NCBI RefSeq assembly: GCF_016592615.1
Contig: NZ_AP013043.1
Coordinates: forward strand, 1,140,001 to 1,172,000
Length of the DNA stretch: 32,000 nucleotides
Origin: Isorropodon fossajaponicum endosymbiont JTNG4
GTDB lineage: Bacteria > Pseudomonadota > Gammaproteobacteria > PS1 > Pseudothioglobaceae
Direction of reading: 5' to 3'
Positions within the stretch are counted from its first letter, which is position 1. Every line of letters starts with the position of its first letter. This document shows, one piece after another, positions 1 through 31,176 of this stretch. The notes under the pieces are model-generated. The model did no database searches and had not been told where the DNA came from. It worked only from the letters and a program-made list of their open reading frames with translations. The position numbers and the translations under genes are program-made.

Positions 1-238
1 ACAGCACTAAATCTATGACTCATTTTTTATCAAATTGGCAAAAAAAATGGCGACCATGTTGCTTTGCTAATTAGTGGTGCTGATGGGTTAAGTGAGTCAG
101 TCAAAAAATATTGCCCATCAATTATAGGGGTTGTCAAATTTAACATTGCCACACGCATTTGCAAGGCTGCTACTAGCGGTAGAACAAATTTATCGCGCCC
201 ATTCATTACTTACTAATCGCCCTTATCACAGAAAATAA
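1..238 (+). pseudogene. rlmH: 23S rRNA m3-pseudouridine1915 methyltransferase RlmH, 3' part, disrupted
   Basis: The RlmH C-terminus is readable but spread over three frames: STKSMTHFLSNWQK | NGDHVALLISGADGLSESVK | [42 protein letters not shown]. Compare E. coli ...LLIGGPEGLS...[36 protein letters not shown]. The frame changes sit in an A8 run (40-47) and an A6 run (103-108). A TAG at 125-127 aligns with the conserved Trp. The stop is at 236-238 and the 5' end lies outside the window. Confidence 0.75.
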
Positions 239-260
239 TACAACAATCAATCGAGGAATT

Positions 261-920
261 ATGAAACTAGAACTGATCAGCTTTAAACTTTGTCCATTTG
301 CACAACGCGCTATTATTTCACTTAATACGCAAAATCTTGATTTTAAGATGACTTATATTAATCCAATGAACCTGCCTGATTGGTTTAAACAAATTTCACC
401 AACCGGGCAAGTGCCTTTGTTAAAAGTAGATGATAAAGTGGTGTTTGAATCTTTGGTAATAACCGAATTTATTAATGAAATAAGTAGCCATAGTTTTCAT
501 CCTAGTGACCTCATTCAAAGGGCTAATAATCGCTCTTGGATTGTATTTTCATCAGGTATTCTTGGTGACTTATTTGGCATTATCACAGCTGATGAGGAAA
601 AATTTAACCACTCAAAATCAGCATTATTTACCAAATTAGCAAAAATTGAGGCAGTTAAAAACAAAGCTAAATTTTTCAATGGCAATGATTTCAACATGAT
701 TGATGCCGCTTTTGCACCAATATTTATGCGCCTAAACTGGATTAATGAATTTACCAATAACACTTTATCACTTGATGAGTTTAAACATCTAAGCGCGTGG
801 AGTAAAGAGCTGTTACAAGTAGATGTGGTTAGAGGTTCAGTGGTTGAGGGGCTGGATGATGCTTATTATTCCAATATTGAAGCGCGTAAAGGTCATCTAT
901 CAACCCTGCTTATTGACTAA
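261..920 (+). CDS. glutathione S-transferase family protein
   Basis: 219-aa ORF. The N-terminus MKLELISFKLCPFAQRAIISL...GQVPLLKVDDKVVFESLVITEFI has the GST thioredoxin-fold pattern, followed by a helical C-terminal half. Confidence 0.75.
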   Translation: MKLELISFKLCPFAQRAIISLNTQNLDFKMTYINPMNLPDWFKQISPTGQVPLLKVDDKVVFESLVITEFINEISSHSFHPSDLIQRANNRSWIVFSSGILGDLFGIITADEEKFNHSKSALFTKLAKIEAVKNKAKFFNGNDFNMIDAAFAPIFMRLNWINEFTNNTLSLDEFKHLSAWSKELLQVDVVRGSVVEGLDDAYYSNIEARKGHLSTLLID

Positions 921-942
921 AGCCTTCCAAATGAGCAAGGCT
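921..942. terminator. short hairpin between convergent genes
   Basis: agcctt-N10-aaggct (6-bp arms) fills the 26-bp gap between two convergent stop codons. There is no clear U-tract. Confidence 0.3.
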
Positions 943-946
943 CTCT

Positions 947-1294
947 TTAAAGAATAGACAAAATATTTTCAGGTGGACGACCGATAACAACGCCTTTGCT
1001 TGTTCTTACAATGGGTCGTTCAATTAGTTTTGGAGTTTTGACCATGGCATTAACCAGTTGATTTTCAGTTAAAGCCTTATCATCTAAACCCTGCTCTTTG
1101 TACTCAGGCTCGCCTTTACGCATGAGCGATCTGGCTTCAAGGTTTAAATCGGTTAATAATTGCTTGAGTTCGCTACTGCTGGGTGGATTTTCTAAATATT
1201 TAATTATCTCAAAATCAACATTTTTTTGTTCTAAAATGGCTAACGTTGTTCTTGATTTAGAACATTTTGGATTGTGATAAATGATTGTACTCAT
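947..1294 (-). CDS. ArsC/Spx-family reductase (YfgD/ArsC-like)
   Basis: MSTIIYHNPKCSKSRTTLAILEQKNV... carries the family N-terminal IYHNPxCSKSR motif. I start it at the internal ATG (1294) because the ORF-track start at 1348 adds 18 unrelated residues and would overlap the divergent gene. Confidence 0.8.
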   Translation of the reverse strand: MSTIIYHNPKCSKSRTTLAILEQKNVDFEIIKYLENPPSSSELKQLLTDLNLEARSLMRKGEPEYKEQGLDDKALTENQLVNAMVKTPKLIERPIVRTSKGVVIGRPPENILSIL

Positions 1295-1306
1295 GACTAA
1301 ATAAAT

Positions 1307-1882
1307 ATGACAAAAAATCCCATTATACCTACAAAGCACGTATTTCAATTAGGCAATAAAATTGCCAAATTTGGTTTTATATGTTCGCTATTTTTAGCTT
1401 TGAATATTGCTCAGGCAATCAGCATTGATGACATTGTCAAGTCTGCTAATAACCTATGGCAAGAAGAGAGGAAAATCAAAATGCCTGATTTTTCTCTAAC
1501 CGACCTTAACGGCAATGTGCATACCAATAAATCCACTCAAGGTAAATACTTAGTGGTTAATTTTTGGGCAACTTGGTGTCCGCCTTGTTTAAAAGAAATT
1601 CCAGCTTTTGTTGAGTTTTATGAAAAAAATAAGGACAAAGTTCTTATTCTAGGGCTTGACTATGAACAAGCTGACAAAGCGGCTATTATTGAGTTTACTG
1701 ATACATTTATGGTGAATTATCCTATCATCCTTTTTGATGATAAAAACGGCGCTCAATTCACAAAATTTGGCGAAGTGCTTGGCATGCCAACGACTTATAT
1801 CTATGGACCAAATGGCAACTTGGTTGATTATCAGATGGGCGAAATGGACATGATGGCTTTAGAAAAAACCATTTCAAAGTAA
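1307..1882 (+). CDS. TlpA/ResA-like periplasmic thiol:disulfide oxidoreductase
   Basis: 191 aa with a hydrophobic signal/anchor (FGFICSLFLALNIAQA) and the thioredoxin motif NFWATWCPPC. Confidence 0.8.
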   Translation: MTKNPIIPTKHVFQLGNKIAKFGFICSLFLALNIAQAISIDDIVKSANNLWQEERKIKMPDFSLTDLNGNVHTNKSTQGKYLVVNFWATWCPPCLKEIPAFVEFYEKNKDKVLILGLDYEQADKAAIIEFTDTFMVNYPIILFDDKNGAQFTKFGEVLGMPTTYIYGPNGNLVDYQMGEMDMMALEKTISK

Positions 1883-2818
1883 CCAATCTTTAGAATGGTT
1901 ACCATTATCACGCACCAACTTAGGTACTAAATACCCACTTAAGTTATTTTTTAATTGTTGATGTAGTTGAATGGCATAATCATCTTTGACTAAAAAATCT
2001 TGTGCGCCCTGCACTTTATCTACCATGTGTAAATAATAGGGCAATATACCCAAATCAAACAATTTCAAACAAAGTTCTGTCAATGTCTCTATTGAGTCAT
2101 TCACACCTTTTAATAATACTGATTGATTGAGCAAAGTAACACCACTTAGTTTGGTGATTTTTTGTGCAAATTGAGCAGACAACTCTTGTACGTGGTTTGT
2201 GTGTAACACCATGACAACATTTAATCTTGAATGGTTAAGCATATCTACTAATTTATTGGTTATTCTACTAGGTGTCACAACAGCACTGCGTGTGTGAATG
2301 CGTAGTGTTTTTATATGCGCAATATTTGCAATATTATCAATCAATACGCTAAGTTTATCGTCACTCAAACTCAACGGATCGCCACCACTTAATATCACTT
2401 CATTGATTTTTGTATCATTAATAATATAATTTTGTATCTCAATCCAATTGCTGATAGCATCATGCTTAGCATAGTTAAAGTTTTGCCTAAAACAATATTG
2501 GCAATGAATGGCGCAAACTTGTGAGGCGATTAATAGTACTCTATTTGGATATTTATGAATAAGCCCAGCCACGGGGGAGTGTTTTTCATCTTCTAGTGGC
2601 GATAAACTAAAACTTGTATTTTTCGATAAACCTTTAGCACTGATGACTTGCTTTAGTAAGGGGTCATCCTTGTTACTTTTATCAATCAATTGTGCAAATT
2701 CTAAGGGGATTTTAATGGGAAAGGTTTGATCTTTGAATGCTTCTGTTTTAAAAAAATCATTACTTTGGTTGGCACCTTTAAGGGCATATCTCGCATGATG
2801 TTGCCAATTATTTTGCAT
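1874..2818 (-). CDS. epmB: EF-P beta-lysylation protein EpmB (lysine 2,3-aminomutase-like radical SAM)
   Basis: 314 aa with the radical-SAM cluster CAIHCQYCFR, an SGGDPL motif, and the overall YjeK/KamA pattern. Confidence 0.85.
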   Translation of the reverse strand: MQNNWQHHARYALKGANQSNDFFKTEAFKDQTFPIKIPLEFAQLIDKSNKDDPLLKQVISAKGLSKNTSFSLSPLEDEKHSPVAGLIHKYPNRVLLIASQVCAIHCQYCFRQNFNYAKHDAISNWIEIQNYIINDTKINEVILSGGDPLSLSDDKLSVLIDNIANIAHIKTLRIHTRSAVVTPSRITNKLVDMLNHSRLNVVMVLHTNHVQELSAQFAQKITKLSGVTLLNQSVLLKGVNDSIETLTELCLKLFDLGILPYYLHMVDKVQGAQDFLVKDDYAIQLHQQLKNNLSGYLVPKLVRDNGNHSKDWLL

Positions 2819-2832
2819 TATAGTTAGCGCAT

Positions 2833-2860
2833 AAAAAAACCCCGATAACGGGGTTTTTTT
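2833..2860. terminator. bidirectional rho-independent terminator
   Basis: aaaaaaaccccg-ataa-cggggttttttt: a GC stem flanked by A7 and T7, directly downstream of the minus-strand ORF 2876-3061. Confidence 0.8.
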
Positions 2861-2875
2861 ATGCGTTTTAAATAT

Positions 2876-3061
2876 CTAGCAGAAGTTAGTAAAATTAGTG
2901 TCTGTGTGCTCTTTACCATCTTCATAGCCTGACTCCCATTCGTCAGTAATTCTTTGCTCTTCAATTTTAGGATTATTTAAAAAACCTGCAACCCAGCCTT
3001 GAGTATAGTTATCGTTTACACCCATTTCTTCCATTTTTTTAACGCCTTCATAGTAAGTCAT
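2876..3061 (-). CDS. small acidic hypothetical protein (61 aa)
   Basis: MTYYEGVKKMEEMGVNDNYTQGWVAGFLNNPKIEEQRITDEWESGYEDGKEHTDTNFTNFC. It is preceded by an AGGAG Shine-Dalgarno 7 nt upstream of the ATG and followed by the strong terminator at 2833-2860. Confidence 0.55.
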   Translation of the reverse strand: MTYYEGVKKMEEMGVNDNYTQGWVAGFLNNPKIEEQRITDEWESGYEDGKEHTDTNFTNFC

Positions 3062-3175
3062 TACCGATACTCCTTAATAGTGTTTATAGTTTTATTTACT
3101 TATATCAGCCCATCTTTCAACCGACATAAGAGAAAGGTAATATTATAACCATTTAATTCCAAGACAAGAAAAAAA

Positions 3176-5341
3176 ATGAATTTATCTGAAATAACAAGCG
3201 GCCTAAACGACAAACAATGCCAATCAGTCACATTAAGTAATGAAAAAAATGCTTTAATACTAGCGGGTGCAGGCAGTGGCAAAACCAGAGTGCTCACACA
3301 TAGAATCGCTTATTTAATCACACAAAAAGATATTCGAACCGATGCTATTTTAGCGGTTACTTTTACTAATAAAGCCGCTGCTGAGATGCGTGAAAGGCTA
3401 AGTACTCTATTAAGACGCCCTATTCAAAGCATGTGAGTGGAAATATTTCATAGCTTGGCACACCGATTATTACGCACTCATTATGAAAAAGCTAAGTTGA
3501 CTTCTGGCTTTCAAATTTTAGATGCACAAGACCAGTTTCGCATTGTCAAACGTCTAATGAAAGAAAATCACATTGATGAATCTAAGTTCCCCATTAGAAA
3601 GGTTCAGTGGTTTATTAACAATCAAAAAGGCGAAGGTATTCGCCCGCAAGACATTGATCCTGGTTATAACTATTTTGTTAAAAAGTCTTGAAGTGTTTTG
3701 AACTTTATGAAGCGCACTGCCAAGCAAATGACCTAGTTGATTTTGCAGAACTACTGATACGTAGTTATGAGCTATTAAAAAATAACACAGACTTGCTTAA
3801 TCATTATCAAGCGCGCTTTGAGCATATTTTAGTGGATGAATTTCAAGATACCAATACGGTGCCAATACAAATGGATTAAATTATTGTTTAGTGGCAATAA
3901 TTAAGTATTTTGTGTGGGTGGTGATGACCAATCTATTTATGGCTGGCGCGGTGCAAAAATTGAAAATATCACCAAACTATGTACAGGTTTTACCCCTATT
4001 GAAACCATCCGCTTAGAACAAAATTATCGCTCAACTGGTAATATTCTAAACGCCTCTAACGTCTTGATTACCCATAACGCCAATCGTATGGGTAAGTCTC
4101 TTTGGACTGATGCTGGCAATGGTGAATTGATTGATGCCTATGAAGCGCGAACTGAAACAGATGAGGCAGATTATGTCATCAGTAGTATTCAAAAATTAAT
4201 CACTGATGGTGCATCACCTAGTGATTGTGCTATTTTGTATCGCTCCAATGCCCAATCTCGTAACTTTGAAGAAGCGCTCATAAAATACAACATTCCTTAT
4301 ATTATCTATGGTGGTTTTAGGTTTTTCGAGCGTGCTGAGATTAAAGATGCTTTAAGTTATTTGCGTTTGATAGAAAATTCTGCTGACAATGTTGCCTTTG
4401 AACGTGTGATTAATTTCCCAACTCGCGGTATTGGCAATGCAACGGTTGAAAAAATACGCACCTTTGCACAAGATAACCACACCAGTCTTTTTCAAGCAGC
4501 CATACAAATGTCATCCACCCTACCAACTCGCGCTGCCAATGCATTAAGTAGCTTTGTTAACCTAATTGAGCAAATGACAGACGACACAAAGAACCTAGAT
4601 TTATCTGAAGAAGTAGCCAACTTGCTTAATACATCAGAATTAATGATGCATTATTCTAATGATAAAACCGATAAGGCTGGCAGTAAAAAAGAAAATCTAG
4701 AAGAACTAATCACCGCAGCGCAACAATACAACCATGAACAAGATAGCGGGATGAACGAAGTGGTGGGGTTTATCTCTTTAGCACCACTAGATTCTAGTGG
4801 TGACACCAATGCGCCTATTAACCAAAATGTACAACTTATGACCATACACTCAGCCAAGGGGTTGGAATTTCCTTATGTATTTTTGGTTGGTATGGAAGGG
4901 GACTTATTCCCCTCTAGACAAAGCAAGGATGAGCCTCATTTAATGGGTGAAGAAAGACGATTATGCTACGTGGGCATGACTCGCGCTATGAAAAAACTAT
5001 CACTCTCTTATGCTATTAAACGCTTTTTGCACGGACAATCCTTATACGCTTATCCTTCACGTTTTTTAGACGAAATTCCAAGTAAATATTTAAATAAGAT
5101 TAAGGCTAAATTTGGTGCAACAATACAAAATTACAATGATGATAAGGCTTTTGATCAAAGTATTACACCCAAATCTGATGGCCAATTATTCATCGGCGCT
5201 TCAGTTAAACACACCAAATTTGGCGTGGGCACAGTGTTAAATTTTGAAGGGCAAGGCGATTCTACTAGGGTGCAAATAAAATTTAAACAAGTAGGCACAA
5301 AATGGCTGATTAGTTCGTATGCAAACCTAGGATTCGTTTAA
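3176..5341 (+). pseudogene. uvrD: DNA helicase II UvrD, multiply disrupted
   Basis: Four consecutive ORF pieces are collinear with E. coli UvrD ([16 protein letters not shown]..., VDEFQDTN, GDDDQSIYGWRGA, LEQNYRS, TIHSAKGLEF, YVGMTRA, C-terminal KFGxGTV...IKWL). The lesions are: TGA at 3434-3436 where UvrD has Trp (GMWVGTFH); a frameshift near 3680-3690 at an A5 run; a frameshift near 3862-3870; and an in-frame TAA at 3902-3904. Confidence 0.9.
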
Positions 5342-5916
5342 ACCTATCTTTATGACTGTTGAATATATAATACATAATAATGGCGTACTGCACCATCGTC
5401 CAGATTAAACAAAAACACTCAAACCAAACTAACAGCACTTATAGAGGCAATCAAACGCCCTAAAAGTTTTTTACACCAGTAACTTTAAAAAAAAATTAAG
5501 CGTAGATTATGGTTAATGGCTAACCCGACAAAATCCACAACACATAATTAAAGTCTTATGTGTGTGGCGTTCAACTGCTAGATTAATACCATAACTTGCA
5601 CAAAATACAATAGCTCCAATATTATCAACGACCTAATATTTCCTTTTCAAAGCACTGCTTAAAAGCGCCATCTTTAAATCCACTATAGGCGGTCTCCCAG
5701 CCAGCCATCTTACAAGGCTCCTGTCCAGCCTTTTTCCCAAGAATTAAGATAGTTAGCCCCATGGATTTGGAGCAAATTGTCGCATGCCTTTACAATTGTA
5801 TTTAGCATTTTTTCTATCACCTAAGTTAATTTTATCGGTCATTCCAAAGTAATCTAAAAAACCAGAATAATATTTAACCCTATTGTTTGCAATGCTCTAA
5901 CCTACTTGGACACATT

Positions 5917-6646
<730 letters not shown>

Positions 6647-6771
6647 AGCGTTGGTGTTGTTGTTTACTCGCTTATCTTTGACTTGATAGTAATAACTACT
6701 GCGAGGAAGTTTGAGTAATGCTCATAATTCTTTAGTATTGTATTGTTGGCAAGCCTTGTTTATCTTGATAA

Positions 6772-7123
6772 TCATATCACTTGGTGATTGTCCACAGCGA
6801 ACAAGGCTGTTGCCTTTTTTAAGATTTCATTGTCCCTTTGTGCGCGCCAAAGTTGTTTCTCAAGCAGTTGTATTGTTTGTTGTTCAGAAGTCAGCGCTTT
6901 GCCTGACTCTGGTGTTTGTCCACCAAGCTCTGCTAGGTATTGTTTTCTCCATCTGCTAACTGCTGAGGAGCAAGCTCCTGATATTATCATGATTTTTTTT
7001 ATTGGTGTAATTCTCATGCACCATGAGTTTGGCATAATCTAGTGTTCCCCCCTCAAGGGGGTATTGAACAGAATGTTCAACGGTAAAAGTCACTCGTTGT
7101 TTTCTTGATTTATATTGTGTCAT
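6772..7123 (-). pseudogene. type-A IS orfA (HTH transposase N-part), frameshifted
   Basis: Same sequence as the intact 116-aa orfA at 30015-30365, but with T8 (6993-7000, equal to A8 on the coding strand) instead of A7, which splits the reading frame. Confidence 0.8.
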
Positions 7124-7188
7124 TACTGACCTCCTTATGGTTTGTATTATAAGGCTATCTTTGTGTCCAATAAAATTAGACTATTGCA

Positions 7189-7433
7189 CCAACTCAAAAT
7201 GCCTACATTGAGAGATTTAACCGTACAGTAAGACAAGAGTGTTTAGATCTGCATTTGTTTGATTCTGTTGAGCAAGCACAAGATGCAACCACACAGTGGT
7301 TATGGGTTTATAATAACGAACGACCGCACTTTGCCCTAGGTGGCATACCACCTAGGGCAAAGGTGGCGTGATAAGATGACTGTAAACAAGTCAAGCCTCT
7401 ACTTTAGAGTTGTATGGAAAATTGGGGTATTAA
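7189..7433 (+). mobile_element. 3' fragment of IS3/IS407-like element, type B
   Basis: Encodes ...TQNAYIERFNRTVRQECLDLHLFDSVEQAQDATTQWLWVYNNERPHFALGGIPPRAKVA*, the C-terminal end of an IS3-family DDE transposase. It ends in the terminal repeat ...ctactttagagttgtatggaaaattggggtatta, which matches the other end of type B at 24416-24448. It appears identical by eye to the reverse complement of 29706-29949. Confidence 0.85.
7329..7362. repeat. perfect 15-bp palindrome with 4-nt loop inside type-B IS
   Basis: ctttgccctaggtgg-cata-ccacctagggcaaag, overlapping the codons for FALGGIPPRAK. It is repeated at about 29777-29810. Confidence 0.9.
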
Positions 7434-8109: not shown

Positions 8110-8921
8110 CTATATCCAATTAAAGATAATGTTTCCAGGTGCCCCTGTATGACTACCATCTTTACCTACAATGCCAAATTTACCAGCCCCTCCATTTGAA
8201 CCATCAGTAGCTGCATGACTTCCAATACCTTTGTTACCACCATGACCACCGTCACCTCTAGACCAAAATAATGCTGTTTTTGTAACTGGTTGTATCAAGC
8301 TTTTATGCTCTTTAGGAAAACTAATAATAATAGGATTGCCATTTGCACCATTACCACCAGTACCACCAGTACCAGATGTTGTAAAAACAACCAAACTACC
8401 CGCACTTTCATTTGCTATACTTTTTATTACAATATTTGCAGGGAGGTTTGCAAGTCCATAATTGCCAATTCTAGCATCTTTGCCGTTTGAGCCAGTATTG
8501 CCCATTAGACCCATTGCCTCCAGACCCAGCCCACGTGCAAATACCTGGACTTGTGGCGCTTTTATCACTTCCATGTGCAGCTGGTCCATAATAGTTTTTA
8601 CCATTCGAGCCTGCACTACCATTATTACCTTTGTACCCCAAAATACCGATACTTAGAACTACGATTGTTTGCTGTTATAGTCAAAGCAGTAGTAATAGAT
8701 GTAATTGACCCTCCATCAAATGTTAATATATCTGCATTAATAAAATAAGACGAGGCTGCGGGCCCTACAACAATATCTTTATTGATGACTATATCTTTCC
8801 CATACATTACGCTTCCTTTAAAAGGAAATGCGATATCTATATAATCCAACGTTTTTTTAGCCATTAAATTATTTTTTCCAAGCATATAATCAGCAATTTC
8901 TTGTAAAAAAACATTATTCAT
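8110..8921 (-). pseudogene. unknown Gly/Asn-rich repeat protein (about 270 codons), two frameshifts
   Basis: ORF 8625-8921 (MNNVFLQEIADYML...TITANNRSSKYRYF) continues in a second frame as GYKGNNGSAGSNGKNYYGPAAHGSDKSATSPGICTWAGSGGNGSNG. It then joins the third frame (ORF 8110-8622) from NTGSNGKDARIGNYG...SGTGGTGGNGANG...GDGGHGGNKG...SNGGAGKFGIVGKDGSHTGAPGNIIFNWI*. The length of 812 nt equals 270 codons plus 2. Confidence 0.55.
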
Positions 8922-9091: not shown

Positions 9092-9817
9092 TTAACTACC
9101 CCATAAAAGTTGCATATTGGCTATCGCTGCGAGTGATGCGGTTTCAGTTCTTAGTACACGAGAACCTAACAATAAAGACCGATAGCCTGCTTGTATAGCT
9201 TGATTGATTTCTATTTCACTGAGTCCGCCTTCGGGACCGATTAAAATACTTGCCTTATCAACTGCTGTCAACTCTAATAGAGTTTGCTCACAACGATGAT
9301 GCAGAACAAAGCCGTTGACAATTGGTTGTTGTAGAAAATCTCTCAAATTGACAGGTGTGAGCACTTCTGGAATAACAGAACGTCCCGACTGCTCACAAGC
9401 ACCAATAACAATCTTTTACCAATGTGATTGATGCTTTGTTAGTTTGTCTAGTTTGTCGCCTTTGAATCTAACCACACAGTGCTGAGTAAAAATAGGAATG
9501 GTTCTATTAACACCCAATTCCACGGCTTTTTGTATTAAAAAATCCATCTTTTCGCCTTTGGCAATACCTTGAACCAAAGTGATGTCCAATTTAGACTCAG
9601 ACGTATTTTGAGTGCAAGTGTATACTTCAATCTCACAATATTTTTTTACTTGCACAAGTGTGGCTAAATAGTTCTTGCCATCACCATTAAATAAAGTAAT
9701 CTCTTGGCCTTGAGGAAAGCGCAATACTTTTGCTAAATGACGTGATGCATATTCATCAAGCATCAATTTCTCATTAATTTGCAAGGGGGTATTTTGGTAC
9801 AATCGTACGTGTTTCAT
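9092..9817 (-). pseudogene. rsmE: 16S rRNA m3U1498 methyltransferase RsmE with one in-frame nonsense codon
   Basis: MKHVRLYQ...FNGDG...GIAKGEKMDFLIQKAVELGV...KLDKLTKHQSHW*KIVIGACEQSGRSVIPEV...ILIGPEGGLSEIEI...LGSRVLRTETA. Both halves are in the same frame. The TAA at 9416-9418 sits where RsmE proteins have Gln in the (R)WQKI motif. Confidence 0.85.
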
Positions 9818-22241: not shown

Positions 22242-22306
22242 TGCAATAGTCTAATTTTATTGGACACAAAGATAGCCTTATAATACAAACCATAAGGAGG
22301 TCAGTA

Positions 22307-22658
22307 ATGACACAATATAAATCAAGAAAACAACGAGTGACTTTTACCGTTGAACATTCTGTTCAATACCCCCTTGAGGGGGGAACACTAGATTATGCCA
22401 AACTCATGGTGCATGAGAATTACACCAATAAAAAAAATCATGATAATATCAGGAGCTTGCTCCTCAGCAGTTAGCAGATGGAGAAAACAATACCTAGCAG
22501 AGCTTGGTGGACAAACACCAGAGTCAGGCAAAGCGCTGACTTCTGAACAACAAACAATACAACTGCTTGAGAAACAACTTTGGCGCGCACAAAGGGACAA
22601 TGAAATCTTAAAAAAGGCAACAGCCTTGTTCGCTGTGGACAATCACCAAGTGATATGA
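22307..22658 (+). pseudogene. type-A IS orfA, frameshifted (A8 at 22430-22437)
   Basis: Identical to 30015-30365 except for A8 versus A7 and a G/A change, so the N-terminal 40 codons are out of frame with the HTH/leucine-zipper part. Confidence 0.75.
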
Positions 22659-22783
22659 TTATCAAGATAAACAAGGCTTGCCAACAATACAATACTAAAG
22701 AATTATGAGCATTACTCAAACTTCCTCACAGTAGTTATTACTATCAAGTCAAAGATAAGCGAGTAAACAACAACACCAACGCT

Positions 22784-23512
22784 ATGATTAAATTAATCAA
22801 ACAAACTGCTATTGAAGTTGGATACACCTATGGCAAACGCAGAATGCGAGTAGTTTTGAATAACCAAGGTTATAACATTGGTATTTACCAAACTGCAACG
22901 CTAATGAAAAAAGCCAATGTAGTTGCCATACGCCCAAGAAAGCGTCATTATTACCCTAATACTAGATTGATGTTTAAAAAGGCAAAAAACCTATTAAATC
23001 GTGTGTTTGAGCAGCAATCAATTAATACGCATTGGGTTGGTGATATTACCTATATCAAAACCTATCAAGGTGGGAGTTATTTAGCCAGTGTGTTGGATTT
23101 AGGCTCAAGACAAGTTGTTGGTTGGGCATTGTCAAAACAGCCTAATGCTCAGTTGGCAAAGGATGCGCTTAGTAATGCTGTGTCTAGACACCAGCCCAAT
23201 ACAAATAAACACATGTTTCACTCTGATCAAGGGACTCAATACTCTTCTAAAGTTTTTATTGATTATTGCAACAAGAACAACATTACTCAAAGCATGAGCA
23301 GGCGAGGTAATTGTTGGGATAATGCGGTCATGGAGCGTTTCTTTAGAAGTCTGAAGACTGAGAGATTAAATTATCAAAGTTTTGCAAATCATAGTGAAGT
23401 CGTGCAAAATGTAGAGGGTTATATCTACTTGTATAATTACAAAAGGATTCATTCAGCGATTGGGTATTTAACACCTGCTCAAAAGATGGCTGAATTGAAA
23501 AAAGCGGCTTGA
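22784..23512 (+). CDS. type-A IS orfB (DDE transposase catalytic part), ORF intact
   Basis: 242 aa with DDE-region motifs. An in-frame TGA at 22706-22708 separates it from the frameshift site, so an OrfAB fusion cannot be made as written. Confidence 0.8.
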   Translation: MIKLIKQTAIEVGYTYGKRRMRVVLNNQGYNIGIYQTATLMKKANVVAIRPRKRHYYPNTRLMFKKAKNLLNRVFEQQSINTHWVGDITYIKTYQGGSYLASVLDLGSRQVVGWALSKQPNAQLAKDALSNAVSRHQPNTNKHMFHSDQGTQYSSKVFIDYCNKNNITQSMSRRGNCWDNAVMERFFRSLKTERLNYQSFANHSEVVQNVEGYIYLYNYKRIHSAIGYLTPAQKMAELKKAA

Positions 23513-23541
23513 AATGTGTCCAAGTAGGTTAGAGCATTGCA

Positions 23542-24449
23542 CACTCACCGAAACCCTACATTTCCCTAAATCATGCCTTCATTGTGAAGATCCGCCACTG
23601 AATCAAACGTTCTAATGATTGAATAACTCGTCTTGCTGGCATGGACAAGTCCACATCAATATTCAAGCCTTCCCGATTGTAATCATCGACAACATTAAAA
23701 GTTCTAATGTGCCTGCCATCAGTGAGTGAGTCTGACATAAAATCCATTGACCAAGTTTGGTTAATAGTTGTTGGCACACTCAGTGCTTCGGGTTTATCTC
23801 TTTTGATTCTTCTTCTTGGCTTGATTCTTAGATTGAGCTCCAGTTCTTGGTAAATGCGATACACTCGTTTATGGTTAAATTTGTAGTCTTTAACATTACG
23901 TAGATATAAATAGCACAGTTTAAAACCCCAACGCTTGTGCGTTGCGGTTAAGCGCAGTAGACAATCGGCAATTAAAGCATTGTCATCACTGAGTTTTGGT
24001 TGATAATAATAAGTGCTTTTACTAATGCTACAAACTTCGTAAATAAGTTTGATACTTGTGTTCTTATTTTGTTCATTGATGTTTAAAGCCATCCTCACGC
24101 CACTGGGATGGCTTTAGAACTTTTTTGCTAAGGCATCCTTTGTAATTTGCAGTTTCAACTCACTCTCAGCATACATACGCTTGAATTGAGCATTTTCTGA
24201 TTCTAGCTCTTTTAAGCGTTTAACCATAGAGACAAAATCTGTATCACCGTATTTAGATCTCCATTTGTAAAATGTGGCTTGAGACATTGCGTATTCACGG
24301 CATAGATCAGCCACAGATATGCCTGATTGGTTTTGTTTGAGTATGTTGACTATTTATGACTCTGTATATCTTGATTTTTTCATGTGAAAACTCCTTATTT
24401 TTTATTATAGAATTTTCTACTTTAGAATGGTGGTTTTTTGGGGTATTAC
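23542..24449 (-). mobile_element. 5' part of IS3/IS407-like element, type B, truncated by type-A copy 2 and internally decayed
   Basis: The left terminal repeat (complement of ctactttagaatggtggttttttggggtatta, 24416-24448) matches the type-B right end at 7400-7433. orfA is at 24114-24383 (MKKSRYTES*IVNILKQNQSGISVADLCREYAMSQATFYKWRSKYG...) with an in-frame TAA at 24354-24356. A slippery GCA_AAA_AAG lies near the orfA stop. The orfB N-part is at 23571-24098 (SKSTYYYQP..., HKRVYRIY, WSMDFMSD, TFNVVDDYNRE) but sits in the orfA frame, which implies an extra indel. Confidence 0.85.
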
Positions 24450-24454
24450 ATTAA

Positions 24455-24909
24455 CAAATTAAAGAAGTAGTGCCACGTCATTCATTGGTGCCATTAGTAA
24501 ACAATACAGGAGTAATTGCGGGCCCTGTTGGAGAGTTGGCAAAACTTTTAGCGGTTATGGCACTACTTAGTAGACAATTGATTTCAAAGAAATTAACTTT
24601 ATTTTATGTGGTGTTATGTACTTTAGGTTTTTCGATGATTGAAAATGTTTATTTTTTTTTGAAATATAGTGAAATTTTGTTTATAAGGGCGAATCCAGCC
24701 CATATGGTATTTTCTGCAATATGGGGTAGTGCCTTAGGCGCTTGGCTGACTAAAGAAAAAAGTTTTTCGTATTTTTTATTTGCGTTGTTTCTGGGTAGGG
24801 GCTACATGCAAGTTGGAATTTATTTGCAATAAAAAATACAACGTTTCATATTTATCTGTTTATTGCAGTACCTTGGATTGGTCTTAGCTTTATTAAAAAT
24901 CAACTTTAA
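24455..24909 (+). pseudogene. PrsW-family intramembrane protease, 5'-truncated by type-B IS and frameshifted
   Basis: Motifs appear in order: GPVGELAKL (EExxK-like), LGFSMIENVYF, RANPAHMVFSAIWG, and then, after a frame change near 24800-24812, GLHASWNLFAIKN...IKNQL*. Confidence 0.6.
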
Positions 24910-25864: not shown

Positions 25865-26303
25865 TTGAATACTCAACAACCGCCCTATACAGAAGAATTA
25901 AAGCATATTGCAGATAGTATGGGCATCTCTCTGTATCAAAGGCTTACTATAGCAGAAGCATCGCTATTTTTACGCATATCAGTAGCAGAGCTTAGAAAAA
26001 TTTTAAAGCAGGGAAAACTTAACCATACAGAGATAACAGAAAAAAATTATGAATTTTTTGGTTATCAACTATTAGAATTTTTATTAAGTACCACTACCAA
26101 AAATAAAATTAAGCCAATTATTCCTGGAAAAACACCTGATAGAATTATATAGAGCTAAAGAAGTGCAAAATATGACAGGGCTATCAAGAACGACTTTATG
26201 GCGATTAGAGAATAAAGGTGAGTTTCCTTATCGGGTAAGCCTTGGTGGAAACAGTGTAGGTTGGAAACTTAGCGAAATAAAAGGGTGGATTGATGAAAGA
26301 TAG
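25865..26303 (+). pseudogene. tandem helix-turn-helix regulator, second module AlpA-like (prophage/integrative-element type), one frameshift
   Basis: The first module is LTIAEASLFLRISVAELRKILKQGKL. After ...PDRII a 1-nt shift near 26145-26152 leads into RAKEVQNMTGLSRTTLWRLENKGEFPYRVSLGGNSVGWKLSEIKGWIDER*, the AlpA/excisionase-type pattern. Confidence 0.6.
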
Positions 26304-26354
26304 AGAAAATTTAATGTGTATACATACTGGTATGCATTTTTAAATAAGAAAATA

Positions 26355-26390
26355 AAAAACCCTTTAGAAGTCTTTTTTTAAAGGGTTTTT
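26355..26390. terminator. bidirectional terminator between convergent genes
   Basis: aaaaacccttta-N12-taaagggttttt, placed between the AlpA-like gene (+) and the transferase gene (-). Confidence 0.65.
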
Positions 26391-26557
26391 GTGTATAAAA
26401 ACGGTGGAGATGGGGATTTTATACTCGATAACGAGAGAATCTGCAAATGAGGCTTGTTGTGTGTCCTTCTAGGACATTCTTAAGAATTTTTTGTTGGTTG
26501 TTTAGATGGTTTCTATTTTACTGGTTTGGGTTGATTTATGCAAAGGTCTCATTTAAA

Positions 26558-27331
26558 CTAATTAACGGACTTCTTAAGTATTTTTTCTAAATTTGCATAT
26601 TCAAATATATCAAGCAAAGATGTGTTTGAGCAATTATAGATTTTATTTTTTTCTAACAACATTTGGTACTGTTTAAATATTTTTCCAGTAGCTGCAAATG
26701 TATGTTGATTGTATGACTTACCTTTCATGGTTCTTGAAATTTCATTTTTTTGATGAAGCCCCTCTTTGTAAAACCTCCATTGATTTCCCTGATTGCATAC
26801 ATAATTATGATCTATTCCTAATAAGTATATCTCATCAAAGCCCATATAGATAGCACTTATTAAGGCATAAATACTGATAGTGTTTGCATTCCATATCATA
26901 TTTGTCATCTTTATATCTTTTTTATTAAAACTGTAATATTCACCTGTATTGATTCCTGTGTAATACCAATTCACTTGATGGTTGTTAAAAAGTTCGTATT
27001 TATTGAGTATATATCTTGTATTATTTTTGTAAGTGTTAAGTCCAAATAGTATTTTTGTATGTTTAGGTATATATTGTTCCATATCTTCAAACCAATCTTT
27101 CCATTCTTGCTCTGTTTGTGGTAAATGAATTGGTGCTGTCATATAATATTTTTCAACATCACCACTCATTATTTCTTGAAAGTCTGGATGAACATAAAAG
27201 TTATTTAAAGCGAAAACAATTTCATTTTTTAATACTTTTAAATTTTCTTGTTTTATGGATGGTCCACTACCCAAAAGAAAACATCTTTGTCCTTTATGTT
27301 TGTCCTCAAGTTCTATGTTTTTTGCGACCAA
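26558..27331 (-). CDS. putative nonulosonic-acid (sialyl) transferase, GT42/Cst-like
   Basis: 257 aa with an apparent TTG start. Motif-level match to Campylobacter Cst-II as I remember it: CFLLGSGPSIK vs IIAGNGPSLK; ALNNFY vs RCNQFY; ISIYALISAIYMGFDEIYLLGIDHNY vs SGVYMCAVAIALGYKEIYLSGIDFYQ; IYNCSNTSLL vs LYCLCPNSLL. It lies downstream of the CMP-sugar genes. Confidence 0.55.
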   Translation of the reverse strand: MVAKNIELEDKHKGQRCFLLGSGPSIKQENLKVLKNEIVFALNNFYVHPDFQEIMSGDVEKYYMTAPIHLPQTEQEWKDWFEDMEQYIPKHTKILFGLNTYKNNTRYILNKYELFNNHQVNWYYTGINTGEYYSFNKKDIKMTNMIWNANTISIYALISAIYMGFDEIYLLGIDHNYVCNQGNQWRFYKEGLHQKNEISRTMKGKSYNQHTFAATGKIFKQYQMLLEKNKIYNCSNTSLLDIFEYANLEKILKKSVN

Positions 27332-27420
27332 GTCCTTATATTTTTTTAAAAGAATTAGAGGTTCTTATGTTGTTTATTTTGCCTAATAAAATAGGTGGCA
27401 AGAATGATTTTATTTTATTT

Positions 27421-28584
27421 TTAGTTACCATTATTTTTCTTTAAAATAATTTCAATAAATTCTCTTACTGCGCCATAGCCACCAGTTCTTTTAAGTTGGA
27501 TAATATTTGGTATGCATTTTATTTCATCTACTGCATTTTTTGGACAGGCAGATACAGATACTTTTTCTAGCAATTCCCTATCATTAATATCATCACCAGC
27601 ATAAGCAACTTCATCGAGCGTTATATTTTCCATTTTACAAATTTCCTTAACAACTTGTAATTTCTCACCATGCTCAACATCTTGATATAAATAATCCACT
27701 TTTAACTTTCTTGCTCTGTTTTCCACTATTTTTGTCTTCTCACTAGTGATAATACCTGTCTTGATACCAACATTCTTTAATAACTCAAAACCCTTTCCAT
27801 CATGTGTATTAAATTTTTTAAATTCTTCACCATTCTCTCCATAATACATACCCGCATCAGTTAGCGTGCCATCCACATCACTTAAAAACAATTTTATTTT
27901 ATTTTTAGGCTTTTGGTAGTCAGCATATTTTTTCATTAATTGTTCCGCAATAAGCCAATCATCCGGCTCGTCCAATTCAAGCATTGTATGTTCTAGCATT
28001 TCATAAATTTCAATCTTGCCACTTAACCTATTCTTATATTTTTTTACATTGCCAACAGAGCTAATATAAATTGCGCCATTTTCTATCAAGTTGCCAGAAA
28101 AATCTTGCCTTTTAGGACGGTATTGATAGTTGTAATTTAGTGCTTTTCCGTTTTTATCCCATAAAAATCTTTTAAAAACCGCGCATGACAACAGACTATC
28201 TGCGTTAGATTTTTGCAGCTTGTCAATTGATAGGTCAATATCTTCTGCCGTTGTAAATGGAGAGGTTGCTTGAATTAATAAAAATAAATCATCATTGGAA
28301 AAATCTTTTTTATCTAAAAATTCAAGCATCACATCTTCTGTTGAGGCCGAATTAGAAGCATTTCCCTTGTCCCTGTCATAAAGACTAACTTTAGAAAAAT
28401 TAAAATGACTCACAGCTGATTTTATCTCTTTACAATCTGTAGCTACATACACTTTATCAATATGCTTAGAATTAACAACTGCAAGTAGAGCCCAATATAT
28501 TAAAGGCTTGCCATTCAATTCTTTAATATTTTTAAAGGCTACTGACTGACTACCACACCTAACTGGAATAAATGCTATATTCAT
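27421..28584 (-). CDS. neuA: bifunctional CMP-nonulosonate synthetase (NeuA-type cytidylyltransferase) / KdsC-type HAD phosphatase
   Basis: 387 aa. The N-domain has IAFIPVRCGSQSVAFKNIKELNGKPLIYWAL, LIQATSPF and RPKRQDF...ENGAIY. The C-domain has LFLSDVDGTLTD (DxDxT), HDGKGFELLKNVGIKTGIITSEKT and YAGDDINDRELL. Its ATG overlaps the upstream stop (ATGA at 28581-28584). Confidence 0.85.
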   Translation of the reverse strand: MNIAFIPVRCGSQSVAFKNIKELNGKPLIYWALLAVVNSKHIDKVYVATDCKEIKSAVSHFNFSKVSLYDRDKGNASNSASTEDVMLEFLDKKDFSNDDLFLLIQATSPFTTAEDIDLSIDKLQKSNADSLLSCAVFKRFLWDKNGKALNYNYQYRPKRQDFSGNLIENGAIYISSVGNVKKYKNRLSGKIEIYEMLEHTMLELDEPDDWLIAEQLMKKYADYQKPKNKIKLFLSDVDGTLTDAGMYYGENGEEFKKFNTHDGKGFELLKNVGIKTGIITSEKTKIVENRARKLKVDYLYQDVEHGEKLQVVKEICKMENITLDEVAYAGDDINDRELLEKVSVSACPKNAVDEIKCIPNIIQLKRTGGYGAVREFIEIILKKNNGN

Positions 28585-29462
28585 TTTCTATTTTTCAATT
28601 TATCTCGTTGGGCTTGTTCAATTAGCAGTATTTCACTATCTTTAAAATTCAGTGCTTTGTAAGTAGCATTTAAATCTCTTACTAATTTCTGAAGCCCTTG
28701 AGGTTCTAATGATGCAGCATGGTCTGTACCTTTCCATGTCCTATCTTTGGTAAAATGCCTCTCTATCCATCTTGCCCCTAAAGTATAAGCAGCAATATCC
28801 AAGGCAACCCCTAAATGATGACCAGAAAAACCTATTTGATTTACTCTGTTTCCATAATTATCATATAACCAGTTAATCTCAAGTAATGCAACATCCTCAG
28901 CAGGAACAGGATATCCAGAAGTGCAAGAATAAATTAATAATCTTGATTTTGCTTGGTTTGTTTGTTCAAAGAACTGAACAATTTCCTCAATTTCGTCTTT
29001 TGTTGTCATGCCGACCGACAACTGAACCTGCCCTGTAAAATCGTCTCTAAGCACCTTCAACATATCAAAATTATTATTGCAAGCCGAAGGAACTTTTAAA
29101 AACTCAGGTTCAAGAGTTATCATTTCTTTTGCAGAAGTAACATCCCACATTGAGGCGCTATAAATCATGCCGATATTATCACAATACTCTTTCAACTCTT
29201 TATTTTGAGCCACATTAAATTCTAAAAATTCTCTATGCTCTCCATAGGTCTCACCATACGAATTATGCGCTACAGGATGTTTTGCTTCGTATTGCTCTTT
29301 GGTTAATAATTCCTTATTATTTCGTTTTTGAAATTTAACATATTTAGCGCCAGACTCTTTTGCTAAATCAATTAATTCTTTGGCAATCTTTATGTTACCC
29401 ATATGATTACAGCCTATTTCAGCTATTACTTTGGGTTCTTGATAGTTATGGTTAAATGGCAT
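28581..29462 (-). CDS. neuB: NeuB-family nonulosonate synthase, NANS-like (9-phosphate type), lacking the SAF/AFP domain
   Basis: The start is set at the ATG 29462 (AGGAG 7 nt upstream), giving 293 aa. Motifs are IAEIGCNHMG and KFQK. AHNSYGETYGEHREFLEF resembles human NANS SKHSWGKTYGEHKRHLEF. CTSGYPVPAEDV and GFSGHHLG are present, and ERHFTKDRTWKGTDHAASLEP resembles NANS ERHITLDKTWKGSDHSASLEP. The protein ends where NANS and NeuB begin their C-terminal SAF/antifreeze-like domain. Confidence 0.8.
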   Translation of the reverse strand: MPFNHNYQEPKVIAEIGCNHMGNIKIAKELIDLAKESGAKYVKFQKRNNKELLTKEQYEAKHPVAHNSYGETYGEHREFLEFNVAQNKELKEYCDNIGMIYSASMWDVTSAKEMITLEPEFLKVPSACNNNFDMLKVLRDDFTGQVQLSVGMTTKDEIEEIVQFFEQTNQAKSRLLIYSCTSGYPVPAEDVALLEINWLYDNYGNRVNQIGFSGHHLGVALDIAAYTLGARWIERHFTKDRTWKGTDHAASLEPQGLQKLVRDLNATYKALNFKDSEILLIEQAQRDKLKNRK

Positions 29463-29487
29463 ATTTACTCCTATTTTAAGTTTAAAT

Positions 29488-29515
29488 AGAGATTGTCTAA
29501 AACTTTCCAATCTCT
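29488..29515. promoter_or_regulatory. 8-bp inverted repeat in the neuB 5' leader
   Basis: agagattg-N12-caatctct lies 26-53 nt upstream of the neuB ATG. It could be an operator or an mRNA hairpin; its function is unknown. Confidence 0.3.
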
Positions 29516-29606
29516 TTTGTACGTGAATAGTTATCTCCAATATGAATAATAATATCATAAAAATAATTATTCACTTTATTACAATACTTATCCCTATATT
29601 TTTTTT

Positions 29607-29705: not shown

Positions 29706-29949
29706 TAATACCCCAATTTTCCATACAACTCTAAAGTAGAGGCTTGACTTGTTTACAGTCATCTTATCACGCCACCTTTGCCCTAGGTGGTATGCCACCT
29801 AGGGCAAAGTGCGGTCGTTCGTTATTATAAACCCATAACCACTGTGTGGTTGCATCTTGTGCTTGCTCAACAGAATCAAACAAATGCAGATCTAAACACT
29901 CTTGTCTTACTGTACGGTTAAATCTCTCAATGTAGGCATTTTGAGTTGG
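29706..29949 (-). mobile_element. 3' fragment of type-B IS (second copy of 7189-7433)
   Basis: It appears by eye to be the exact reverse complement of 7189-7433, including the 15-bp palindrome, and has the same junction with the type-A left end. Confidence 0.85.
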
Positions 29950-30014
29950 TGCAATAGTCTAATTTTATTGGACACAAAGATAGCCTTATAATACAAACCA
30001 TAAGGAGGTCAGTA

Positions 30015-30365
30015 ATGACACAATATAAATCAAGAAAACAACGAGTGACTTTTACCGTTGAACATTCTGTTCAATACCCCCTTGAGGGGGAAACACTAGA
30101 TTATGCCAAACTCATGGTGCATGAGAATTACACCAATAAAAAAATCATGATAATATCAGGAGCTTGCTCCTCAGCAGTTAGCAGATGGAGAAAACAATAC
30201 CTAGCAGAGCTTGGTGGACAAACACCAGAGTCAGGCAAAGCGCTGACTTCTGAACAACAAACAATACAACTGCTTGAGAAACAACTTTGGCGCGCACAAA
30301 GGGACAATGAAATCTTAAAAAAGGCAACAGCCTTGTTCGCTGTGGACAATCACCAAGTGATATGA
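30015..30365 (+). CDS. type-A IS orfA, the only intact copy (116 aa, A7 at 30138-30144)
   Basis: MTQYKSRKQRVTFTVEHSVQYPLEGETLDYAKLMVHENYTNKKIMIISGACSSAVSRWRKQYLAELGG...LEKQLWRAQRDNEILKKATALFAVDNHQVI. This shows the typical IS3 OrfA HTH, a leucine-zipper-like segment, and a slippery site near the end. Confidence 0.8.
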   Translation: MTQYKSRKQRVTFTVEHSVQYPLEGETLDYAKLMVHENYTNKKIMIISGACSSAVSRWRKQYLAELGGQTPESGKALTSEQQTIQLLEKQLWRAQRDNEILKKATALFAVDNHQVI

Positions 30366-30490
30366 TTATCAAGATAAACAAGGCTTGCCAACAATACAAT
30401 ACTAAAGAATTATGAGCATTACTCAAACTTCCTCGCAGTAGTTATTACTATCAAGTCAAAGATAAGCGAGTAAACAACAACACCAACGCT

Positions 30491-31176
30491 ATGATTAAAT
30501 TAATCAAACAAACTGCTATTGAAGTTGGATACACCTATGGCAAACGCAGAATGCGGGTAGTTTTGAATAACCAAGGTTATAACATTGGTATTTACCAAAC
30601 TGCAACGCTAATGAAAAAAGCCAATGTAGTTGCCATACGCCCAAGAAAGCGTCATTATTACCCTAATACTAGATTGATGTTTAAAAAGGCAAAAAACCTA
30701 TTAAATCGTGTGTTTGAGCAGCAATCAATTAATACGCATTGGGTTGGTGATATTACCTATATCAAAACCTATCAAGGTGGGAGTTATTTAGCCAGTGTGT
30801 TGGATTTAGGCTCAAGACAAGTTGTTGGTTGGGCATTGTCAAAACAGCCTAATGCTCAGTTGGCAAAGGATGCGCTTAGTAATGCTGTGTCTAGACACCA
30901 GCCCAATACAAATAAACACATGTTTCACTCTGATCAAGGGACTCAATACTCTTCTAAAGTTTTTATTGATTATTGCAACAAGAACAACATTACTCAAAGC
31001 ATGAGCAGGCGAGGTAATTGTTGGGATAATGCGGTCATGGAGCGTTTCTTTAGAAGTCTGAAGACTGAGAGATTAAATTATCAAAGTTTTGCAAATCATA
31101 GTGAAGTCGTGCAAAATGTAGAGGGTTATATCTACTTGTATAATTACAAAAGGATTCATTCAGCGATTGGGTATTT
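30491..31176 (+). pseudogene. type-A IS orfB, 3'-truncated
   Basis: Identical to copy 2 orfB up to ...[10 protein letters not shown]. The ORF then runs into unrelated flanking DNA. Confidence 0.8.

Follow-up and report, generated by a model that had tools for sequence, protein, structure and literature searches.

Sequence evidence for an eroding, non-functional uvrD in a vesicomyid clam endosymbiont of the Candidatus Ruthia clade

Both methyl-directed mismatch repair and nucleotide excision repair depend on UvrD (DNA helicase II), which also takes RecA filaments apart. Its fate in vesicomyid clam endosymbionts has been described by Shimamura et al. (2017, PLoS One 12:e0171274; PMC5310779), who PCR-amplified and sequenced uvrD from 12 of these symbionts and found it “collapsed and degraded” in those of Isorropodon fossajaponicum (Ifos_S) and Abyssogena phaseoliformis (Apha_S). 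In a 2020 preprint, Ca. R. phaseoliformis and Ca. R. southwardae are likewise listed as having lost the gene, and the reported losses thus comprise Ifos_S, Apha_S and these two. Expression was tested by Shimamura et al. in Vok and Cpac_S only. The same authors report, in all these symbionts, a “uvrD paralog” (uvrDp) of about 1050 aa without the seven helicase motifs, which is a distant paralog and not a second uvrD. Erosion of recA, mutY, uvrB and uvrC is on record in vesicomyid symbionts as well (Kuwahara et al. 2011, as cited in PMC5310779; Shimamura et al. 2017) and took place in the same setting of reductive genome evolution and by the same mode as described below, that is, a substitution or small indel followed by accumulating small deletions. 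In Ifos_S itself, the literature has mutY intact and, by implication, recA too.

Here we describe the uvrD locus of a 32-kb stretch of DNA, referred to below as the window. Judging from the comparisons that follow, we put at roughly 95% the probability that this locus is an eroding, non-functional but orthologous uvrD of a thioautotrophic vesicomyid endosymbiont of the Ca. Ruthia clade, belonging to the I. fossajaponicum symbiont lineage or to its immediate sister. The pseudogene and its very lesions are already known for the lineage, having been published in 2017 and restated in the 2020 genome comparisons; what the window contributes is set out at the end.

The pseudogene occupies positions 3176..5341 of the forward strand, and its 2166 nt equal the length of an intact orthologue. 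No uninterrupted ORF spans it. Instead, the ORF list of the window contains four pieces (3176-3436, 3437-3691, 3688-3879 and 3914-5341), which match the equivalog profile NF008743 collinearly at profile positions 1-85, 89-168, 172-228 and 247-718 of 720, with E-values of 1e-28, 2e-30, 1e-22 and 3e-186, respectively. These matches are far beyond chance and the feature is real, with homology running in order along the whole profile, even though the best single fragment, at 620.8 bits, falls short of the curated single-protein cut-off of 965 bits for NF008743/TIGR01075. The largest piece also matches the structure of E. coli UvrD (2IS1) at 1.9e-120. When intact UvrD (P0001) was used as the tblastn query, one HSP covered its residues 1-721, the conceptual translation of the locus was 84% identical to it, and no second uvrD copy was found within the 32-kb window, where this is the only such locus. 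The locus is orthologous along its whole length to E. coli UvrD and to the intact 721-aa UvrD of Ca. Ruthia and Thioglobus.

Orthologues were collected by a scan of species-representative genomes, and lesions were mapped by three-way nucleotide alignment. Intact 721-aa UvrD orthologues in the same synteny are present in Ca. Ruthturnera sp. CSMAG_640 (L032), whose gene (L032:5227-7392) is 88.5% identical to the window copy at the nucleotide level, and in a further genome (L001). Upstream of uvrD the window carries two intact genes on the reverse strand, a radical-SAM lysine-2,3-aminomutase-like gene (1874-2818) and a 61-aa ORF (2876-3061), and both are also found upstream of uvrD in L032, in L001, in the Abyssogena southwardae symbiont Asou_11_S2 and in Ca. 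R. magnifica (Rmag_0320-0322; PMC5310779), which supports orthology by position. The region between the 61-aa ORF and uvrD (3062..3175, forward strand), a putative promoter and leader, is conserved with genomes that have an intact uvrD, and comparison with these relatives revealed no visible shared lesion in it. A search of the window with Rfam returned two tRNAs only. Look-ups by exact protein sequence, made for the epmB-like protein, the 475-aa and 86-aa uvrD pieces, GST, prs and yhbY of the window, matched no record.

Measured against the intact orthologues, the alignment places five ORF-disrupting lesions in the gene, namely two nonsense codons and three indels. The most upstream of them, TGG to TGA at Trp87 of the MWVGTFH sequence (3434..3436), ends translation from the native ATG after 86 codons, and the other four lie downstream of it. 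Just beyond this stop, GGT ACA has become GAA ATA (3440..3445; G89E and T90I), which turns GTFH into EIFH at two residues that are each 100% conserved in 111 intact relatives. There follow two frameshifts, a 2-bp deletion in a homopolymer that is A7 in the orthologues and A5 here (3680..3684) and, 12-15 nt past it, a +1 T insertion in a T run (T3 to T4; 3696..3699), and then a +1 C insertion (3862..3863) that changes GTG-CAA to GTGCCAA and restores the original frame. The second nonsense codon is AAA to TAA at Lys243 (3902..3904), and it is closely followed by GAT to GGT (3920..3922; D249G), by which GDDDQ of helicase motif III becomes GGDDQ. Since the three indels sum to zero, the gene is still 2166 nt long and the start-codon frame is regained from 3863. 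In all, 16 window-specific changes affect residues with a conservation of at least 97% among the 111 intact relatives.

As a consequence, the SF1 helicase motifs (Walker A/B, Ia, III-VI) are no longer found on one polypeptide. The 86-aa piece carries Walker A and another piece, in a different frame, carries DEFQD, whereas the longest surviving ORF (475 aa from a GTG start; 3914..5341, forward strand) holds motifs III-VI and the C-terminal domain; as this ORF is devoid of the ATPase motifs Walker A/B, it cannot yield a helicase. In contrast to a functional UvrD, the window copy thus has no uninterrupted ORF, is mutated in the motif Ia region and in motif III and, as shown below, is not under purifying selection. 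The first-pass annotation had described four collinear ORF pieces covering UvrD, as borne out by the profile matches (NF008743 positions 1-718 of 720), and two nonsense codons, TGA at 3434-3436 at the Trp of MWVGTFH and TAA at 3902-3904, whose positions proved exact in the alignment. Its two frameshifts, near 3685 and near 3866, need revision: the frame is indeed disrupted at both places, but by three indels, the one near 3685 being compound (-2 in the A-run plus a T) and the one near 3866 being the C inserted at 3862-3863. The multi-hit nature of the pseudogene consequently stands, with the count of lesions rising from four to five. Its proposed comparison with sister-genome orthologues likewise came out in favour of a pseudogene, given the intact 721-aa UvrD in the same synteny.

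The published Ifos_S sequence (PMC5310779, Fig 3 and S5 Fig) has the same flanking gene order as the window (cf. Rmag_0320-0322), and it carries the same TGA followed by the GAA-ATA codons, the same “--” gap in the A-run, an additional C at the same place (in the row “ACGGTGC--CAATAC”) and the same TAA followed by GGT-GGT-GAT. The +T insertion is illegible in the machine-read text of S5 Fig, and the numbering of the row concerned (475-530), one base short compared with the other rows, fits the net -1 that the insertion would leave. Lineage-specific codons are common to the two sequences as well, namely AGC at Ser8, CGT at Arg72, GGG at 525 and GGA at 719. With four lesions legible in an independent, PCR-derived sequence and the row numbering fitting the fifth, the lesions are biological and already published. 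The Ifos_S amplicon differs from the window in having an extra 466-nt gap at gene positions 1605-2070, which correspond to window positions 4780-5245 and are fully present here, and the window is thus not identical to the published sequence. This difference could possibly reflect a strain polymorphism, a sister lineage such as the symbiont of Ab. mariana, or a stretch missed in the PCR or sequencing behind the published data; at the junction of the stretch (4780-5245), the window shows only T-rich microhomology.

The closest protein match to the window gene, a UvrD fragment of 580 aa, belongs to Ca. Ruthia sp. Asou_11_S2 (GCA_019400385.1), the symbiont of Abyssogena southwardae mentioned above. 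Its contig is 98% identical to the window over positions 1-5886 at the nucleotide level, with the same upstream synteny, and differs from it downstream of 5886, where the window has an insertion sequence. The uvrD of Asou_11_S2 is also broken and drifting, but it has none of the five lesions of the window; its own are a +1 A at the equivalent of window position 3362 and CAA to TAA at the equivalent of 5126. Between the two genomes uvrD diverges by 2.7%, compared with 0.5-1.75% for the flanking segments. When substitutions were polarised with Ca. Ruthturnera sp. CSMAG_640, uvrD showed nonsynonymous to synonymous counts of 20:1 on the window branch and 13:5 on the Asou branch (33:6 combined), whereas four flanking genes together showed 5:3 and 2:8, respectively; uvrD thus has an omega of 1.47, as opposed to 0.16 in the flanking genes (Fisher p=0.0012). 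In addition, the polarised divergence of uvrD (51/2166 = 0.0235) equals the synonymous divergence of the flanks (11/474 = 0.023). These values show a loss of purifying selection and fit neutral drift of uvrD on both branches over the whole time since the split, and they agree with the inference in the first-pass annotation that the gene has been inactive for some time. Its second inference, a host-restricted setting, agrees with the placement of the organism in the Ca. Ruthia clade, whose members are maternally transmitted symbionts of vesicomyid clams.

The same figures hint that constraint on uvrD was lost at or before the split of the window and Asou lineages, although with counts as small as the 11 synonymous changes in the flanks an ancestral loss is something that we infer rather than observe. 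Relaxed selection on uvrD probably dates back to the ancestor shared by the Abyssogena and Isorropodon symbionts, given that three members of this clade have different lesion sets and that the divergence of uvrD between the window and Asou_11_S2 equals the synonymous divergence of its flanks. It is conceivable, if on balance unlikely, that a single release from constraint took place in that ancestor before any ORF-breaking lesion had arisen, in which case the symbionts of the window/Ifos_S lineage, of A. southwardae and of A. phaseoliformis would each have gained their own, non-overlapping lesions thereafter. No ORF-breaking lesion is common to the window and Asou_11_S2, and the only non-conservative change at an invariant site that they share is G488E, the Gly being invariant in the 111 intact relatives; this change would be a candidate for the initial event, the alternative being that a partner function had been lost. 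It is also possible that uvrD was inactivated independently in these lineages soon after they split.

The kinds of change accumulated on the two branches differ. On the window branch, uvrD has 15 AT>GC against 9 GC>AT changes, such that 15 of 28 changes are AT>GC transitions and 12 of 28 are A>G on the sense strand, whereas on the Asou branch (L081:9790-11960) the corresponding counts are 4 and 15 (Fisher p=0.013 for the contrast). Together with the homopolymer indels, the window spectrum is suggestive of mismatch-repair deficiency, although this is no more than a lead, some 50 changes in a single gene being far too small a basis for such a claim.

Several other explanations can be envisaged for a uvrD in this state. 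The lesions could be sequencing or assembly errors, such as homopolymer miscalls, in a gene that is intact in the organism, and two of the three indels do lie in homopolymer runs (A5 and T4). However, both stop codons, the -2 deletion, the extra C and the missense codons next to these lesions can all be read in the PCR-derived Ifos_S sequence, the numbering of which fits the +T; two of the lesions are base substitutions rather than indels; the gene has a 20:1 excess of nonsynonymous changes and 16 changes at near-invariant residues; and this assembly shows no such damage in the genes flanking uvrD, which are intact. We therefore consider errors of this kind extremely unlikely. Alternatively, the gene could be expressed by recoding, with TGA being read as Trp (by code 4 or by suppression) and the shifts being bypassed by programmed frameshifting, which would explain why the TGA falls exactly on a conserved Trp codon and why the indels sum to zero. 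Yet the TAA codon and three separate shifts would need to be bypassed as well, in a protein with mutated catalytic-motif residues and an omega of about 1.5, and the probability of such recoding is in our view close to negligible. Its TGA-as-Trp component is ruled out by the 21 intact genes of the window, in which all 52 of 52 Trp codons are TGG, no TGA occurs in frame and TGA ends 4 genes; with codon usage conforming to the standard genetic code, the TGA in uvrD is a true stop.

A different kind of explanation holds that a truncated product has been kept for a new role, the candidate being the 475-aa ORF (3914-5341), in which the 2A/2B domains persist along with the Tudor-like domain that binds RNA polymerase at the C-terminus. 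Consistent with it, a long ORF does survive, it matches structures of the C-terminal UvrD domain (7EGS and 6YI2), and the 466-nt deletion of the published Ifos_S is absent from the window. Nevertheless, on the window branch the 475-aa part has taken 13 nonsynonymous changes against at most one synonymous change in the whole gene, among the residues altered being the near-invariant ones affected by D249G, D271G, L381F, K479E, S537P, E575G, D591G and E719G. Moreover, the ORF begins at a GTG, a nonsense codon deprives the Asou_11_S2 gene of its C-terminus, and the published Ifos_S lacks most of the region in question. A retained function of this ORF thus appears very unlikely, and we return to uvrD as an eroding pseudogene.

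The surroundings of the gene are of interest in their own right. At 544 bp downstream of uvrD lies an IS3-family insertion sequence (copy 1; 5885..7188, reverse strand), and it is exactly at the edge of this element (5886) that synteny with the 98%-identical Asou genome breaks off. It is one of three copies of about 1.3 kb that are 99-100% identical to each other (5885-7188, reverse strand; 22242-23544 and 29950-31176, forward strand). Their ends are inverted repeats (TGCAAT...ATTGCA), and an A6G slippery site lies where orfA gives way to orfB. Most differences among the copies are homopolymer indels of one base (A8 vs A7, +G), as a result of which orfB of copy 1 is split; copy 3 is without its right end. 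Recent IS activity of this sort is unusual among vesicomyid clam symbionts; it matches the 2020 preprint, in which transposases are described from Ca. R. phaseoliformis and Ca. R. southwardae, unlike most vesicomyid symbionts. A 244-nt segment that includes a long palindrome (CTTTGCCCTAGGTGG..CCACCTAGGGCAAAG) is present twice with 100% identity (7189-7432 and 29706-29949), adjoining the left end of copies 1 and 3 but not of copy 2. This segment may represent either another small mobile element or a flank that was co-transposed. Directly beside copy 2 there is a different IS3-type remnant (23571-24314, reverse strand), consisting of a 66-aa orfA and a truncated 175-aa orfB, after which comes a truncated fragment of a PrsW-family protease (24470-24832).

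The region downstream of uvrD differs among three related genomes, with nagZ in CSMAG_640 (L032:7400-8900), small ORFs and a 461-aa protein that weakly matches Glyco_hydro_19 in Asou (L081:12500-16307) and the IS in the window (5342 onwards), and this suggests that it is a hot spot of rearrangement. Farther along, two adjacent ORFs on the reverse strand (8110-8921; 170 aa and 98 aa) have no Pfam match, the 170-aa one being Gly-rich with repeated GGxG/GNG motifs. The gene rsmE (16S rRNA methyltransferase, PF04452; 9092-9862, reverse strand) contains a single in-frame TAA (9416-9418; HW*KIVIGACEQ), which, going by E. coli RsmE, is probably a CAA to TAA change at a conserved Gln; rsmE is thus a candidate for a second young pseudogene in the window. 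Finally, a low-GC (~30%) block bounded by IS copies (25865-29558) holds an HTH gene and a gene for an AlpA-like regulator (26163-26303), followed by genes for a NeuB-family synthase, a cytidylyltransferase-HAD fusion and an MptE-like protein. It looks like a horizontally acquired island for the biosynthesis of nonulosonic-acid (sialic-acid-like) sugars.

Taken together, decay of uvrD in this lineage would have proceeded by point substitutions and by slippage in short homopolymers, much as has been described for recA, mutY, uvrB and uvrC of these symbionts. As the window gene is still full length, it stands at an early stage of decay, unlike those eroded genes. Loss of UvrD would predict a mutator and hyper-recombination phenotype for the window lineage, as the first-pass annotation had also proposed; the one published test of such a predicted phenotype was negative. 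To the published record the window adds a sister with a wholly different lesion set, drift at the neutral rate on both branches and a gene in which the published 466-nt deletion is absent. It thereby captures the early erosion of a DNA-repair gene in a marine, maternally transmitted chemosynthetic symbiont and adds to the emerging picture of reductive genome evolution in these bacteria.
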